Of a stretch of DNA of 64,000 nt, positions 2,571 to 61,278 are shown one piece after another (position 1 is the first letter of the stretch; every line of letters begins with the position of its first letter). This DNA comes from Burkholderiales bacterium (GTDB taxonomy: Bacteria; Pseudomonadota; Gammaproteobacteria; Burkholderiales; Casimicrobiaceae). The notes under the pieces are model-generated. The model searched no databases, had not been told where the DNA came from, and worked only from the letters and a program-made list of their open reading frames with translations. A program made the translations under genes and the position numbers. The stretch covers positions 54,619 to 118,618 of the forward strand of contig JADZDD010000001.1 of NCBI GenBank assembly GCA_020851235.1, read 5' to 3'.

Positions 2571-3898
2571 AGATCACGATGATCGGCACGGGTTACGTGG
2601 GGCTCGTGACCGGCACCTGCTTCGCCGAGGTCGGCAACGATGTCCTGTGCGTCGACGTCGATCCCCGCAAGATCGCGATCCTCAATGCGGGCGGCGTGCC
2701 AATCCACGAGCCCGGCCTCGAAGCGATGGTCCGCCGCAACATCGCGGCAGGTCGGCTGCGCTTTTCCACCGACATCGCGGCGTCGGTGGCGCACGGCGCG
2801 CTGCAGTTCATCGCCGTGGGCACGCCTCCCGACGAGGACGGCAGCGCCGACATGCGCCACGTCATCGCCGCCGCGCGCGCGATCGGCGAGCGCATGCAGG
2901 AGCCGAAGATCGTCGTCGACAAGTCGACCGTTCCGGTCGGGACCGCCGATCGGGTGCAGGCGACGATCGCGGCCGCGCTCGCCGCGCGCGGGGTCGCGAT
3001 CCCGTTCTCGGTCGTGAGCAATCCCGAGTTCCTGAAGGAGGGTGCTGCGGTCGAGGACTTCATGCGCCCGGACCGCGTCGTGATCGGCGCCACCGATCCC
3101 GGCGCGATCACCGCGCTGCGCAACCTGTACGCGCCTTTCATGCGCAATCACGACCGGCTCCTCGTCATGGATCCTCGGTCGGCCGAACTCACGAAGTACG
3201 CCGCCAATGCGATGCTCGCCACGCGCATCTCGTTCATGAACGAGCTTGCCAACCTCGCCGAGACGTTGGGTGCGGACATCGAGCTGGTGCGCCAGGGCAT
3301 CGGTTCGGATCCGCGCATCGGCTACCGCTTCCTCTATCCCGGGGTGGGCTACGGCGGCAGCTGCTTTCCCAAGGACGTGCGGGCGCTGCAGCACACCGCT
3401 GCGCAGCACGGGCATCCGCTCGCACTGCTGGCGGCGGTCGAGGCGGTCAACGCGGCGCAAAAGGAGGTGCTCGTGCACAAGATCGTGGCGCGCCTCGGTG
3501 CGGACCTGCGCGGACGCACCATCGCGCTGTGGGGCCTTGCCTTCAAGCCGGACACCGACGACATGCGCGAGGCGCCGTCACGCGTCATCATCGCCGCACT
3601 CGTGGCGCGCGGCGCGCGCGTGGTCGCCTACGATCCGGTGGCGATGGACGAGGCTCGACGGCTCTTTGCCGACGCTTCGGGGATCAGCTTTGCGGCAACG
3701 CCGCTTGCCGCCTGTGACGGCGCCGACGCGCTCGTCGTCGTCACCGAATGGCAGGAGTTTCGCAGTCCCGATTTCATGGACCTGCGCCGCCGCCTGACGA
3801 CGGGGCTCGTCTTCGACGGACGCAATCTGTACCCGCCGGCGGACGTGCGTGCCGCCGGGCTCGAGTACTTCGGCATCGGCCGTCCGGTGCCGCAATGA
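2567..3898 (+). CDS. ugd: UDP-glucose 6-dehydrogenase
   Basis: [26 protein letters not shown] is a Rossmann fold. The catalytic motif [10 protein letters not shown] is present and the length is 443 aa. The ATG overlaps the pyrF stop (ATGA). Confidence 0.9.
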
Positions 3899-16698: not shown

Positions 16699-17967
16699 TC
16701 AGTCGGCCGCAAGCAGCACGAGCGCGCCCAGCCCCGCACCGATGCCGACGGGAATGCCGTAGCGCTCGAGGTTGCTGACCGAGTCACCGACGATCACTTC
16801 CACGGGAACGCTGGTGAGATCGAGGAGCCGGTTGGTGACCGAGGCCTGGACCATGCGGGTGAGCGAATTCTTGCGCGCGGTCGCGACCACGATGTGGTTG
16901 CACCCGAGACGCTTCGCCTCGTCGGCGATCGTCTCGGCGCGCGGGCCGACCCGCACGTGCTCGGCAAAGGGCAGACGCACGTCGGCAAGCATCTGGCGCA
17001 GCGGCGCGAGCACCTTGTCCGCTTCGGCACGGTGATACTCCTCGCGATCCGCCTTCGGGGTGAAGCGCGCGACGTGCTTGGAGAACGGTGCGCGGACGTG
17101 AAGGAGGTGGACCTCGAAAGTGGGATTCTTTTGGAACTCGGCGATGACGTGACGAACCGCCTGCTGCGCGTTGCGCGAGCCGTCGACGGGGACGAGGACT
17201 TTGACCATGGCAGGGTCTCCAGAGTGGACGTTGGACACAGCGGATGCCGCGGCGGCGGCGGAGCGGAACCTCTTGACGCGGCTGGCGATGCGCGACTCGA
17301 GGCTCCGGTGATTGCGCACGAAGCCTGCGAAGAGGACGCCGCCGACGACCAGCACGTAGAGCAAGGGCGTGACGAGCGGCGAGGTGGCGAGGAAGTCGGC
17401 GGCGAGCGGCTCGGAGGTCATCATCTTGACGCTCGTCCAGGCGAGAACGCCGGCGCCCAGATACACGAAGGCCGGGTACTTCTCGACGAACTTGAGGAGC
17501 AGCGTCGAGCCCCAGATGACGATCGGCACGCTGATGAGCAGGCCCAGGGTGACGAGAAGGAAGCTGCCGTGCGCGGCGCCCGCGACCGCGAGCACGTTGT
17601 CGAGACCCATCACCATGTCGGCGACGATGACCGTGCGCAATGCACCCCAGAAACTCGACGCACCCTGGATCTTCTCCGCGCTGTCCTCATCCTCGGGCAA
17701 GAGGAGCTTGTAGGCGATCCAGACCAGGAGCGCGCCTCCGGCGAAGAGCAGACCCGGAATCTTGAGCAGGGCGACGACGATGAGCGTCATCGACGTGCGC
17801 ACCACGATGGCACCGACGGTTCCCCAGACGATGGCCTTCGTTTGCAGATGTTTGGGGAGATTGCGGGCTGCCAGCGCGATGACGATGGCGTTGTCGCCGG
17901 CGAGGACGAGGTCGATGAGGATGATCGCCAGGAGCGCCGAGGCGAACTGCATCGAGAGGATTTCCAT
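16699..17967 (-). CDS. TerC/YjbE-family integral membrane protein fused to a C-terminal universal stress protein (UspA-like) domain
   Basis: The N-terminus LLAIILIDLVLAGDNAIVIALAA ... and a second VIVADMVMGLDNVLAVAGAA are the two TerC-family DN repeats. The C-terminal 150 aa, MVKVLVPVDGSRNAQQAVRHV...EVHLLHV...GCNHIVVATARKNSLTRMVQASVTNRLLDLTSVPVEVIV, form a Usp fold without the G-x2-G-x9-G-S/T ATP motif. Confidence 0.85.
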   Translation of the reverse strand: MEILSMQFASALLAIILIDLVLAGDNAIVIALAARNLPKHLQTKAIVWGTVGAIVVRTSMTLIVVALLKIPGLLFAGGALLVWIAYKLLLPEDEDSAEKIQGASSFWGALRTVIVADMVMGLDNVLAVAGAAHGSFLLVTLGLLISVPIVIWGSTLLLKFVEKYPAFVYLGAGVLAWTSVKMMTSEPLAADFLATSPLVTPLLYVLVVGGVLFAGFVRNHRSLESRIASRVKRFRSAAAAASAVSNVHSGDPAMVKVLVPVDGSRNAQQAVRHVIAEFQKNPTFEVHLLHVRAPFSKHVARFTPKADREEYHRAEADKVLAPLRQMLADVRLPFAEHVRVGPRAETIADEAKRLGCNHIVVATARKNSLTRMVQASVTNRLLDLTSVPVEVIVGDSVSNLERYGIPVGIGAGLGALVLLAAD

Positions 17968-18116
17968 GGCTCACTCGCGCGTGAAAGGATGACGACGCCA
18001 GTATCGACCGGCGGGAAGGGGTGTGGATTCGAAGTTGATGATGCGATCCATCACGAAGTCGGATGGACGGCTCCGCGCCAGCGATCGACGGACGTCCTTC
18101 AACAGTGTATCGGTGG

Positions 18117-18145
18117 TTGCACCTAAGGGAAATCCCTTATATGAT
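18117..18145 (+). promoter_or_regulatory. Sigma70-like promoter (TTGCAC - 17 nt - TATGAT) reading toward the riboswitch and the LysR gene
   Basis: The -35 TTGCAC is at 18117-18122, the spacer is 17 nt, and the -10 TATGAT is at 18140-18145, in a locally AT-rich stretch. The spacer contains the palindrome AAGGGA-AA-TCCCTT (18125-18138). Confidence 0.55.
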
Positions 18146-18180
18146 GGGCTTGCATTCGGCCTACCGACCGAATGCCCCCT

Positions 18181-18310
18181 CGAAGGGGAGTAGCTTTGGC
18201 AGGGTCGCATGGGCCCTGCTGCGGCATGATCGCCAATCCGGGCGCAGCCTTCGCGGACGTCCCGGTCATGCCGGCACCATCGACACTCGGGTGCAAGCGA
18301 GACCTTTGCC
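18181..18310 (+). promoter_or_regulatory. yybP-ykoY (Mn2+) riboswitch-like aptamer, plus strand
   Basis: GGGGAGTAG at 18185-18193 matches L1. ATCGACAC-TCGG-GTG is at 18280-18293 and CAAGCGAGACCTTTGCC at 18294-18310. P1.1 can pair 18181-18186 with 18303-18308. Internal hairpins are GCAGGG/CCCTGC (18199-18204/18214-18219) and GGCATGA..CCGGG/CCCGG..TCATGCC (18223-18242/18261-18272). The reverse complement lacks these motifs. Confidence 0.7.
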
Positions 18311-18395
18311 GGACCGCAGTCTCGACGATCATGTGTTGGCGTCGGGCCTGCGGGCAGGTAAAGGCCGCCAGACACTCGTCGCACTTTGCGGGTAT

Positions 18396-18428
18396 CGCGG
18401 TCGTTGCAAACGGCAACCGGAGACCGCG
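18396..18428 (+). promoter_or_regulatory. Stem-loop partly sequestering the LysR Shine-Dalgarno sequence (possible expression platform)
   Basis: CGCGGTC (18396-18402) pairs with GACCGCG (18422-18428) and encloses the hairpin GTTGC-AAACG-GCAAC. The SD GGAG (18419-18422) overlaps the 3-prime arm and the ATG is at 18431. GGTAAAGG (18357-18364) could pair with the P1.1 3-prime strand CCTTTGCC. Confidence 0.4.
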
Positions 18429-18430
18429 TC

Positions 18431-19480
18431 ATGCCGCAACCGCGAATTCGCCACTATCTGCGTCACGGCACTCTGCCCCAACTCGCCGTCTTCGAGGCGA
18501 GTGCGCGACTCAAGAGCTTCACTCGTGCCGGTGACGAGTTGCATCTCGCCCAGCCCACGGTATCGGCGCAGATCCGCAAGCTGACCGAGACGGTCGGGAC
18601 GCCGCTCTTCGAGCAGGTCGGGCGCACGCTACGACTCACGGCCGCCGGCCACTGCGTGCACGAGCACTGCCTCGAAATCCTCGCCGTGCTGAGCCACCTC
18701 GAGGAGTCGCTGCAGTCGCTGCGCGAGGTCGCCTCCGGCGACCTGCGCCTCGCGATCGCGGGGACCACCATGAGCTTCGTCACGCGCATGATCGCGACCT
18801 TCGGCGCGCGGCACCCCGACGTCGCGATCACGGTGCGTATCGACAACCGGACGCGGATGCTCGAGCGCCTCGCCGCTCGCGAGGACGACCTGTACCTCTT
18901 CGCGGATCCTCCCGAGGCAGGCGACATCGTCCGGCAGGCGGTGCTCGCGCACCCCCTCGTCGTCGTGGCCGCTCCATCGCACCCCCGGTGCCGCGCGCGC
19001 GGCCTGACGCTCGCCGACCTTGCGGGCGAGCCGCTCGTCGTGCGCGAGCGCGGCTCGGGAACGCGGGCGCGGATCGCGGCCCTCTTCGCGCAGGCGGGGG
19101 TTGCGCCGAACGTGCGGATGGAGCTCGCCTCCGACGACGCGGTACGCGAGGCGGTCCGGCACGGCGCCGGTCTGGGCATCGTGCCGCGCGATTGCGCAAT
19201 GTCGGGCAGCGGGCGTGACGAACTCGTCGAACTCGACGTCGCCGGATTCCCGCTCGTCCGGCACTGGCACTTCGCCTATGCGGCGCAGGCGCGCCTCACG
19301 CCGGCGGCGGGAGCCTTCCTGCAGCACGTGCGCGAGGCGATGCAGGAGAGCGAAGCCCGGGCGGAGCGGATCGACACGCCGGTGGTCGCGTCCGACGATC
19401 TGTACGCGACACGGCCGGCGGCGCTGGCGCTGGCCCGCCGTGCCGTGGCAACGTCCGTATTGGCCGCGCGTCCGACGTAG
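18431..19480 (+). CDS. LysR-family transcriptional regulator (349 aa)
   Basis: LPQLAVFEASARLKSFTRAGDELHLAQPTVSAQIRKLTETVGTPLFEQVGRTLRLTAAG is a LysR wHTH, followed by a substrate-binding domain. The ATG has an SD GGAG 8 nt upstream. Confidence 0.88.
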   Translation: MPQPRIRHYLRHGTLPQLAVFEASARLKSFTRAGDELHLAQPTVSAQIRKLTETVGTPLFEQVGRTLRLTAAGHCVHEHCLEILAVLSHLEESLQSLREVASGDLRLAIAGTTMSFVTRMIATFGARHPDVAITVRIDNRTRMLERLAAREDDLYLFADPPEAGDIVRQAVLAHPLVVVAAPSHPRCRARGLTLADLAGEPLVVRERGSGTRARIAALFAQAGVAPNVRMELASDDAVREAVRHGAGLGIVPRDCAMSGSGRDELVELDVAGFPLVRHWHFAYAAQARLTPAAGAFLQHVREAMQESEARAERIDTPVVASDDLYATRPAALALARRAVATSVLAARPT

Positions 19481-39687: not shown

Positions 39688-39763
39688 TGGCGTCCCCAGG
39701 GGGATTCGAACCCCCGTACTCACCGTGAAAGGGTGATGTCCTGGGCCTCTAGACGATGGGGAC
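39688..39763 (-). tRNA. tRNA-Glu (anticodon UUC)
   Basis: The reverse complement GTCCCCATCGTCTAGAGGCCCAGGACATCACCCTTTCACGGTGAGTACGGGGGTTCGAATCCCCCTGGGGACGCCA gives a cloverleaf with anticodon loop CUUUCAC. It is near-identical in pattern to proteobacterial tRNA-Glu. CCA is encoded. Confidence 0.93.
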
Positions 39764-39811: not shown

Positions 39812-39887
<76 letters not shown>

Positions 39888-61203: not shown

Positions 61204-61278
61204 GGGCGTTTAGCTCAGCGGTAGAGCACTCCCCTCACACGGGAGGGGTCGCTGGTTCGAACCCAGCAATGCCCACCA
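61204..61278 (+). tRNA. tRNA-Val (anticodon CAC)
   Basis: GGGCGTTTAGCTCAGCGGTAGAGCACTCCCCTCACACGGGAGGGGTCGCTGGTTCGAACCCAGCAATGCCCACCA gives a cloverleaf with anticodon loop CUCACAC and TPsiC GGTTCGAAC. CCA is encoded. Confidence 0.93.

Follow-up and report, generated by a model that had tools for sequence, protein, structure and literature searches.

A divergent yybP-ykoY-type aptamer precedes a LysR-type regulator gene and may place it between metal sensing and a divergent TerC-Usp exporter gene

The 64,000-nt window analysed here (the whole stretch of DNA, to which all coordinates refer, with (+) and (-) denoting its strands) contains a TerC gene of the YjbE type with a C-terminal Usp fusion (16699..17967, (-); Pfam TerC 3e-48, Usp 5e-19), and divergent from it a gene for a LysR-type transcriptional regulator (18431..19480, (+)). 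The TerC-Usp protein matches the NCBIfam model TIGR03717 R_switched_YjbE with 226 bits against a cut-off of 134.8. The regulator combines an N-terminal HTH_1 domain (Pfam, 3.6e-19) with a C-terminal LysR_substrate domain (3e-48); it reached no NCBIfam equivalog, and its closest models are CbbR-like and phn_lysR. Both gene calls agree with an earlier sequence-only reading of this DNA, which proposed that a plus-strand yybP-ykoY-type aptamer between the two genes feeds LysR rather than TerC, possibly as the first step of a cascade. Every comparative test that we carried out agrees with this central proposal. Why, then, should an RNA of this class stand before a transcription factor gene with its back to the exporter gene?

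The minimum free-energy (MFE) fold of 18181-18308 (+) is a four-way junction of P1.1/P1.2, P2, P3.1/P3.2 and P4, and the same junction was recovered independently as the RNAalifold consensus. Read directly, the closing helix P1.1 pairs CGAAGG (18181-18186) with CCTTTG (18303-18308), exactly where it had been placed before. The remaining elements, all on (+), are L1 (18187-92 and 18299-18302), P1.2 (18193-96/18295-98), P2 (18198-18220), P3.1 (18223-29/18266-72), L3 (UCGCCAAUCC, 18230-18239), P3.2 (18238-43/18261-65) and the variable hairpin P4 (18274-94). Across 30 genomes 97.1% of cells pair and 14 pairs carry double changes, a value reached by 0 of 500 shuffles; among 113 independent metagenome copies 95.3% pair, with double changes in 26 of the 34 pairs. 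The L1 loop (GGGGAGUAG on its 5' side, GAGACC on its 3' side) and the 'CA' of L3 (C18234, A18235) are invariant in the 30 genomes. Three conserved blocks had been named earlier: the outer two, GGGGAGTAG at 18185-18193 and CAAGCGAGACCTTT at 18294-18307, stand, while the middle one, 'UCGACA', is really TCGACA at 18280-18285 (off by one), lies in the variable P4 loop and is unconserved in relatives. The true conserved middle block is L3. The aptamer is placed on the plus strand because of its abundant G-U pairs and the strand of every model match, as the earlier reading had it.

The Rfam model of the class, RF00080, has no match on either strand of the window, whether at the gathering score of 45 bits or at E<=10, so that the plus-strand hit suggested as a check is absent and the minus strand is likewise empty. 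The closest relative, L002, scores 21.5 bits. However, the validated mntP riboswitch of E. coli, used as a control, also scores below threshold (41.6 bits), which makes the threshold over-strict in the present release. A model built from this group's sequences alone (R1) picks up E. coli alx with 39.7 bits (E 5e-9) and E. coli mntP with 34.9 bits (E 9e-8), both over their full length, and the next best match has 14.4 bits. We therefore discounted the RF00080 negative on the strength of the mntP control and of the R1 matches. A chance resemblance devoid of riboswitch function would fit the silence of RF00080, but the covariation, the reciprocal model matches and the conservation of the group in more than 140 loci refute it, and we give it practically no credence. 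These data confirm 18181-18308 (+) as a genuine structured RNA and, judged by sequence and structure, a divergent member of the yybP-ykoY class.

The position of the aptamer relative to its neighbours identifies its likely target. In about 29 of 32 related genomes it shares the strand of LysR and precedes the LysR start by 170-245 nt, and a census of metagenome copies collected by aptamer first found a LysR orthologue downstream in 70 of 112. In 39 of the 112 it directly precedes a TerC, P-type ATPase, Na_Ca_ex, GDT1 or CitMHS gene. The recurrence that the sequence-only reading had proposed to look for is thus present in both collections. One carrier, Ramlibacter sp. AN1133 (locus L023), is available in culture. 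Among the LysR-linked copies, 53 of 55 (96%) have a TerC, P-type ATPase or Usp gene as their divergent neighbour, and these divergent genes fall in the classical target classes (TIGR03717 R_switched_YjbE and PMR1/SERCA-like ATPases). On the exporter side of the window no minus-strand aptamer was found before TerC-Usp (best score 7.4 bits), and none of the ATPase-Usp neighbours has an aptamer of its own.

The leader region holds a promoter (TTGCAC 18117-18122, 17 nt, TATGAT 18140-18145, (+)) that the sequence-only reading had located correctly. A single-sequence scan of the leader called neither this promoter nor any terminator, and the promoter was recovered instead by positional conservation: the best sigma70-like match ends 28-34 nt 5' of the aptamer in 28 of 30 loci, usually with a spacer of 17 nt and an extended -10 of the TGn kind. 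Its spacer contains a palindrome, TAAGGG-AAAT-CCCTTA, at 18124-18139. Facing it is an inferred TerC promoter, a -10-like block at 17999..18004 (-) (plus-strand letters CAGTAT; GATACT/ATACTG in the direction of TerC), which is invariant in six TerC-type intergenic regions and stands 32-37 nt from the TerC start codon; the TerC transcript should for this reason not reach the aptamer. This bears on the idea that the plus-strand RNA acts on TerC by antisense pairing or transcriptional interference, with LysR a bystander. The two genes diverge across an intergenic region of only 210 nt, and the element had been described as antisense to any long TerC leader. With a conserved promoter-like block so near the gene such a leader is unlikely; moreover, the aptamer-LysR spacing is conserved, as is a platform ending at the LysR start codon, and the module is identical where the neighbour is a P-type ATPase. 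We consider action on TerC very improbable.

Between the promoter and the LysR start codon the leader is densely folded. A 5' hairpin at the transcript start (18152..18175, (+); GCAUUCGG, loop, CCGAAUGC) is present in nearly all loci with differing stem sequences. Downstream of the aptamer, the MFE fold contains an anti-P1.1 hairpin (18302..18365, (+)) in which ACCUUUGCC, the P1.1 3' strand, pairs with GGCAGGUAAAGG (18357-18364) around an inner stem CCGCAG/CUGCGG. The segment GGTAAAGG at 18357-18364 had already been singled out as a competitor for that strand, and its coordinates are correct. The homologous hairpin is a terminator stem in transporter-linked copies; the leader in the window has no terminator. 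At the end of the leader CGCGGUC (18396-402) pairs with GACCGCG (18422-28) in a stem over the ribosome-binding site (RBS; 18396..18439, (+)), seen both by direct reading and in the fold. This stem is flanked by UUGCGG with CCGCAA and buries the Shine-Dalgarno sequence (SD) GGAG (18419-22) ahead of the ATG at 18431, again as first described, and an equivalent stem is kept in 21 type-B leaders. Helix H3 of the type-B platforms suggests, by analogy, a candidate relay helix, GGCCGC (18363-68) with GCGGUC (18397-18402; 18363..18402, (+)), which may rival both the anti-P1.1 hairpin and the start-codon stem; it is longer in L003/L004. Two platform folds that exclude each other are both paired in about 95% of cells, with modest covariation (double changes in 3 and 5 pairs), and are iso-energetic (-45.6 vs -44.8 kcal/mol), whereas the start-codon stem differs between them (-12.0 vs -5.5). 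This comparison shows the leader platform to be a conserved bistable relay of mutually exclusive hairpins. A conserved upstream AUG was also considered as the start of a leader peptide or of an N-terminal LysR extension, and was rejected since its frame is unconserved between loci.

These features suggest how the leader could work. The LysR mRNA would begin at about 18152 and hold the aptamer in its 5' leader. With metal bound, P1.1 would retain the strand CCUUUG; with metal absent, this strand would pair with the downstream GGUAAAGG box in the long hairpin. The choice would be relayed through mutually exclusive helices to the stem over the SD and start codon, so that high Mn2+ would lead to more LysR synthesis, probably by translational control. 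LysR would then bind a T-N11-A dyad between the divergent genes and switch on the TerC-Usp exporter gene, which in the present genome has no riboswitch of its own. On balance we favour this model as a whole, from Mn2+-class riboswitch through LysR to the TerC-Usp exporter.

The direction of switching was assessed in two ways. Folding at equilibrium, with the 3' strand of P1.1 either free to pair or kept out, gave no consistent difference in RBS accessibility between closed and open P1.1 (mean difference 0.008, 30 leaders), because the competing folds are iso-energetic, and the case for the ON direction is therefore a kinetic one. The parity of the relay predicts Mn-ON for each of the three platform architectures, L018 with its direct anti-SD among them, and nine transporter-linked copies build terminators on the P1.1 3' strand, the classical ON design. 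To our knowledge, the characterised members of the class are ON switches. LysR-type proteins are established as repressors as well as activators, and together with the equal energy of the two folds and the lack of direction from equilibrium folding this leaves room for the opposite sign, in which Mn2+ lowers LysR and LysR represses the exporter or regulates other genes, for instance in uptake. That arrangement is unlikely: the riboswitches described in PMC11672702 and PMC8632737 turn on Mn2+ export, the terminators of the transporter-linked copies would be disrupted by P1.1 formation, and the three architectures that agree on ON are independent. We thus take the LysR leader to be probably Mn-ON. 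A clean split between terminator platforms for transporters and relay platforms for LysR proved only partly true, terminators being found in 9 of 39 transporter-linked and 3 of 70 LysR-linked copies.

As for the ligand, the class makes its Mn2+-specific contact with an invariant L3 adenine, through N7 (PMC11672702). By alignment, rather than by structure, A18235 would be the counterpart of this adenine; the L1 residues of the group equal those of E. coli alx and mntP in the model alignment, and the L3 core GUCA..CGGG is common to the group and alx (CGUCAUUACG). It is conceivable that the aptamer is instead a specificity variant for a different cation, Ca2+ being the most plausible. The group goes unrecognised by Rfam's model, the associated pumps include PMR1/SERCA-like 'calcium' ATPases and Na_Ca_ex proteins, the S. 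pneumoniae member responds to Ca2+ as well, and McCown et al. expect there to be rare variants whose specificity is altered. The L1 and L3 core with its invariant adenine is nevertheless canonical and closest to that of E. coli alx, and among the targets TerC and GDT1 are typical exporters of Mn2+; we regard a change of ligand as quite improbable, and Mn2+ as the probable ligand.

The last step, from LysR to the exporter, draws on the intergenic region. A candidate LysR site, a T-N11-A dyad (CCATCACGAAGTCGGATGG, 18048..18066), is found some 65 nt upstream of the presumed start of TerC transcription, near 17992 (-), within a conserved block, ATGC..TCCATC.CG..GAT.G, at 18041-18066; its arms are degenerate and only 5 bp long. 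A 19-nt score with shuffles, which replaced a strict 15-nt search that was too narrow, found LysR-box-like dyads of at least 7/8 in 14 of 30 loci against 6.7% of shuffles, so that a strong dyad occurs in fewer than half of the loci. In 14 contigs, moreover, a second aptamer precedes TerC, and LysR is therefore not needed merely to make TerC Mn-responsive. Both observations would suit a riboswitch-controlled LysR with targets elsewhere, next to an independent exporter whose adjacency reflects shared function. This too we find rather improbable. The divergent adjacency, at 96%, spans two unrelated exporter families, the conserved dyad sits some 65 nt upstream of the inferred TerC start, and LysR-family regulators are classically transcribed away from their targets. 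That the aptamer-LysR pair consistently faces an exporter gene in about a hundred related bacteria points to a cascade from RNA sensor through protein regulator to exporter, in which LysR would activate the exporter. We also considered whether loss of the TerC-side riboswitch was tied to the Usp fusion and rejected this, as in the double-riboswitch contigs TerC is likewise followed by Usp.

The RF00080 members (E. coli alx and mntP, B. subtilis yybP/ykoY, L. lactis yoaB and S. pneumoniae mgtA) share with the present group the same four-way junction, the L1 sequence GGGGAGUAG...GAGACC, an L3 loop with a GUCA core and an invariant adenine, the use of the P1.1 3' strand as switching strand, and an association with genes for TerC, type IIA P-type ATPases and GDT1. 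The group differs in that it scores under the Rfam gathering threshold, that the next gene here encodes a transcription factor and not a membrane protein, and that a multi-step hairpin relay replaces a single terminator or SD sequester. Our literature search found no regulator as a yybP-ykoY target, the known targets being transporter or membrane-protein genes, and no link of any kind between yybP-ykoY and LysR; its scope ended short of the gene-context tables of Dambach 2015 and Price 2015. This points to a riboswitch-regulator-exporter cascade as unreported for the class.

The regulator itself resembles other divergent LysR-type regulators in its HTH_1 and LysR_substrate domains, its divergence from a presumed target and its candidate intergenic T-N11-A dyad. 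Within the family, NhaR is a cation-responsive example (cf. PMC9337991). Here, by contrast, the regulator's own mRNA leader carries a metal riboswitch, so that part of the signal would come in ahead of protein synthesis. E. coli mntP likewise joins transcription factors and an Mn2+ riboswitch on one exporter system: MntR and Fur work at the promoter, and the leader carries the riboswitch (PMC8632737). There the inputs act in parallel on the same gene, whereas we propose a series of riboswitch, regulator and exporter; the 14 double-riboswitch contigs would act both in series and in parallel.

RNA sensors upstream of regulatory proteins are known elsewhere: a c-di-GMP-I riboswitch precedes tfoY in Vibrio cholerae, and AdoCbl riboswitch-controlled RNAs act on PocR or EutV in Listeria and Enterococcus. 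These are cascades of a like kind with different ligands and mechanisms, and we know of none among them that has a metal-ion riboswitch or drives a LysR-type regulator beside its target. More tentatively than the model itself, we suggest that a metal riboswitch was recruited to gate a dedicated LysR-type regulator of Mn2+/Ca2+ efflux, with the two sensors in series and a five-helix relay between them. If so, metal riboswitches can stand atop a regulatory hierarchy, and a large group of soil and water Burkholderiales gains a candidate manganese-efflux regulator. An RNA sensor and a ligand-binding regulator in series could serve as an AND gate or an amplifier, a natural two-input circuit of RNA plus protein for study or reuse; the back-to-back relatives would form a coherent feed-forward loop with two copies of one RNA sensor, and the five-helix platform would be an unusually long kinetic switch.

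For annotation, the present Rfam model misses no fewer than 150 copies of this aptamer group. The anti-P1.1 hairpin is also picked up by miRNA models, and the microRNA-family matches in the window reflect this long platform hairpin only.

Direct reading of the plus strand located the features on which the sequence-only reading had based a Mn2+ (yybP-ykoY) riboswitch-like leader, namely GGGGAGTAG at 18185-18193, CAAGCGAGACCTTT at 18294-18307, the closing helix P1.1 (18181-18186 with 18303-18308), a promoter-like TTGCAC-17-TATGAT (18117-18145), GGTAAAGG at 18357-18364 and a CGCGGTC/GACCGCG stem around the LysR SD (18396-18402 with 18422-18428). The exception is UCGACA, which had been taken for a conserved block; it lies at 18280-18285, within the loop of the variable hairpin P4, and is not conserved among relatives. 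Comparison with these relatives identified the true conserved middle block as the L3 loop, UCGCCAAUCC, at 18230-18239. On the minus strand the element is flanked by a TerC+Usp fusion gene (16699-17967), and on the plus strand by a gene for a LysR-type regulator (18431-19480).

The significant plus-strand match to the Rfam yybP-ykoY model RF00080 (Rfam 15) anticipated by the earlier reading was not obtained: no RF00080 match reached the gathering threshold in the window, and neither strand of 17900-18500 gave a match at E<=10. Among nine related loci, the sole match was a weak but correctly placed one of 21.5 bits in the closest relative. The validated E. coli mntP riboswitch (L001, 2462-2558), used as a control, scored 41.6 bits, itself under the model's threshold of 45, and homology was therefore tested in three other ways. 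The plus-strand fold is a four-way junction, with P1.1 around the L1 loop and then P1.2 and three hairpins; RNAalifold recovered the same junction from 30 sequences. In this alignment 97.1% of cells pair, compared with 35-42% when partners are slid, both partners have changed in 14 pairs, and none of 500 shuffles equalled the observed value on any of five measures. A further 113 distinct metagenome copies, absent from model building but with their alignment fitted to the model, gave 95.3% pairing and double changes in 26 of 34 pairs. Frequent G-U pairs fix the strand of the aptamer. Model R1, a covariance model built from this aptamer group only, matched the E. coli leaders of alx (39.7 bits, E 5e-9) and mntP (34.9 bits, E 9e-8) over their full length, the latter at the position of Rfam's own match; the best background score was 14.4 bits. 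L1 is invariant, and L3 holds an invariant CA (C18234 and A18235) in the relatives' alignment. An invariant L3 adenine provides the Mn2+-specific contact of the class (PMC11672702). The element is thus almost certainly a structured RNA homologous to Mn2+ riboswitches, a divergent but genuine class member missed by the curated model. RF00080 (Rfam 15) misses the entire betaproteobacterial group, at least 150 copies. The sole Rfam gathering-level matches within the window are three tRNA genes (39691-39763 and 39815-39887, minus strand; 61204-61275, plus strand).

The pairing of aptamer and LysR noted in the window recurs in relatives. A genome search with the LysR protein returned 32 loci from Burkholderiales and other betaproteobacteria, and about 29 of these carry the aptamer on the LysR strand, 170-245 nt upstream of the start codon; two exceptions are cut by contig ends. 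To avoid the bias of LysR-based loci, we also searched metagenome contigs with the conserved ends of the aptamer, which yielded at least 120 contigs. Among the matches listed, 112 copies had downstream room: a LysR orthologue came next in 70, a transporter gene lay directly downstream in 39 (CitMHS-type permease 21, TerC 10, P-type ATPase 4, Na_Ca_ex 3, GDT1 1) and another gene in 3. Some genomes thus use this aptamer type in the ordinary way, and it stands before LysR more often, with the same L3 core in both settings. The aptamer very probably acts in cis on LysR expression. CitMHS-type (ArsB/NhaD superfamily) permeases, the commonest direct transporter target (21/112 among the matches listed; L043, L044, L059, L063, L073, L087, L096, L110, L121, L126 and others), are not known to be among the classical Mn2+ riboswitch targets.

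Of 30 loci, 28 have a sigma70-like promoter whose end lies 28-34 nt ahead of the aptamer; most of these promoters have a 17-nt spacer and an extended -10. The window's copy was not called by a single-sequence promoter scanner. A 5' hairpin of variable stem sequence follows (18152-18175, plus strand). The promoter spacer contains a perfect palindrome, TAAGGG-AAAT-CCCTTA (18124-18139), a possible operator, for instance in autoregulation; L003, L004 and L006 have AAGGGTA-N3-ACCCT at this position and ATPase-type loci, those with a divergent P-type ATPase, have none. Between 18175 and 18188, CCCCU (18175-18179) can pair with AGGGG (18184-18188) at the expense of P1.1 and L1; the YCCCUCC-AAA-GGGGAG arrangement is conserved across loci.

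Downstream lies a GGU(G/A)AAGG box with which the P1.1 3' strand can form an anti-P1.1 hairpin. Such a hairpin with a U-tract is a classical terminator, whose formation metal binding would prevent. Among the matches listed, at least 9 of the 39 transporter-linked copies have a U-tract after the hairpin, versus 3 of 70 LysR-linked ones; the window has none. The 21 ATPase-type leaders support two mutually exclusive global folds, each pairing in about 95% of cells (33-55% in slid controls); double-change pairs number 3 and 5, and the terminal start-codon stem has an energy of -12.0 kcal/mol in one fold and -5.5 kcal/mol in the other. These folds are iso-energetic on average (-45.6 vs -44.8 kcal/mol), and equilibrium folding accordingly showed no consistent change in ribosome-site accessibility. 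Fold choice would have to be kinetic. With P1.1 closed, box 1 would pair with the next segment, leaving box 2 free to pair with the 5' strand of the start-codon stem; with P1.1 open, the local anti-P1.1 hairpin would form first, followed by the strong start-codon stem. The simpler one-box platform of the window (plus strand; 18302-18365, then 18363-18368 with 18397-18402, then 18396-18402 with 18422-18428) has Mn-ON parity too, as does L018, whose SD is itself the pairing partner of the P1.1 3' strand. We infer that relay platforms would switch in the Mn-ON direction.

The divergent neighbour in related loci is either a TerC-Usp fusion, as in the window, where the TerC domain belongs to TIGR03717 'R_switched_YjbE', or a PMR1/SERCA-like P-type ATPase of ~1100 residues that also ends in a Usp domain. 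Among the matches listed, 53 of the 55 LysR-linked copies with upstream room have a divergent TerC, P-type ATPase or Usp gene. A Usp domain, C-terminal or adjacent, accompanies every divergent exporter of either type (window 16699-17967; L019 1151-4735; L023 1208-4552; all minus strand). In six TerC-type intergenic regions, invariant blocks adjoin TerC: CAGTAT (17999-18004), -10-like on the TerC strand, TTCGAA (18028-18033) and ATGC..TCCATC.CG..GAT.G (18041-18066), which contains a T-N11-A dyad as candidate LysR site. This dyad precedes the inferred TerC start by ~65 nt, where textbooks place a LysR recognition site. Dyads of at least 7/8 occur in 14 of 30 loci versus 6.7% of shuffles; the arms of the window's copy are only 5 bp long, and the dyad evidence therefore supports a LysR site here but does not settle it. 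The entire cascade, Mn-ON with LysR activating the divergent exporter, is on balance the reading we favour.

The window's TerC-Usp has no aptamer (best minus-strand score 7.4 bits, filters off). At least 14 metagenome contigs carry a pair of back-to-back aptamers on opposite strands, separated by 230-400 nt; one member reads into LysR, its partner into TerC(+Usp), TerC_alx or Usp/ATPase (L045 12117-12692; L050 2463-2946 and 4456-4555, with a third copy; L051, L054, L056, L061, L081, L098, L101, L105, L114, L139, L042 and L132). The TerC gene of the window thus has orthologues with a riboswitch of their own, and the window, with the LysR-side copy only, is the form in which the LysR arm alone remains. 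These contigs weaken the simplest reading, that LysR exists only to relay the Mn signal to TerC, and suggest instead that the arrangement is feed-forward or that LysR receives a second input via its ligand-binding domain.

Described targets in the reviews and primary literature examined are transporter or membrane-protein genes only, and our full-text literature search, which did not extend to the gene-context tables of the two 2015 discovery papers, found no link of yybP-ykoY to LysR or any transcription factor. The system combines a known sensor with a new wiring of its output, and its relay platform is unusual.

The window's LysR protein reached no named equivalog; an identical protein occurs in GCA_009612875.1 (contig WBZR01004632.1) and two Logan assemblies. 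Among genomes, the nearest relative is L002, an uncultured Burkholderiales MAG with 74% identity in LysR and 86% in TerC-Usp. LysR matches are split over two frames in L028, L030, L032 and L033 (MFD-series MAGs), likely through sequencing indels rather than as pseudogenes. The rearranged locus L031 (1858-5726) has TerC and Na_Ca_ex genes on either side of its aptamer (3165-3295, minus strand; 81.9 bits), and a nearby LysR homologue matches from residue 60 onward only, without the HTH region.
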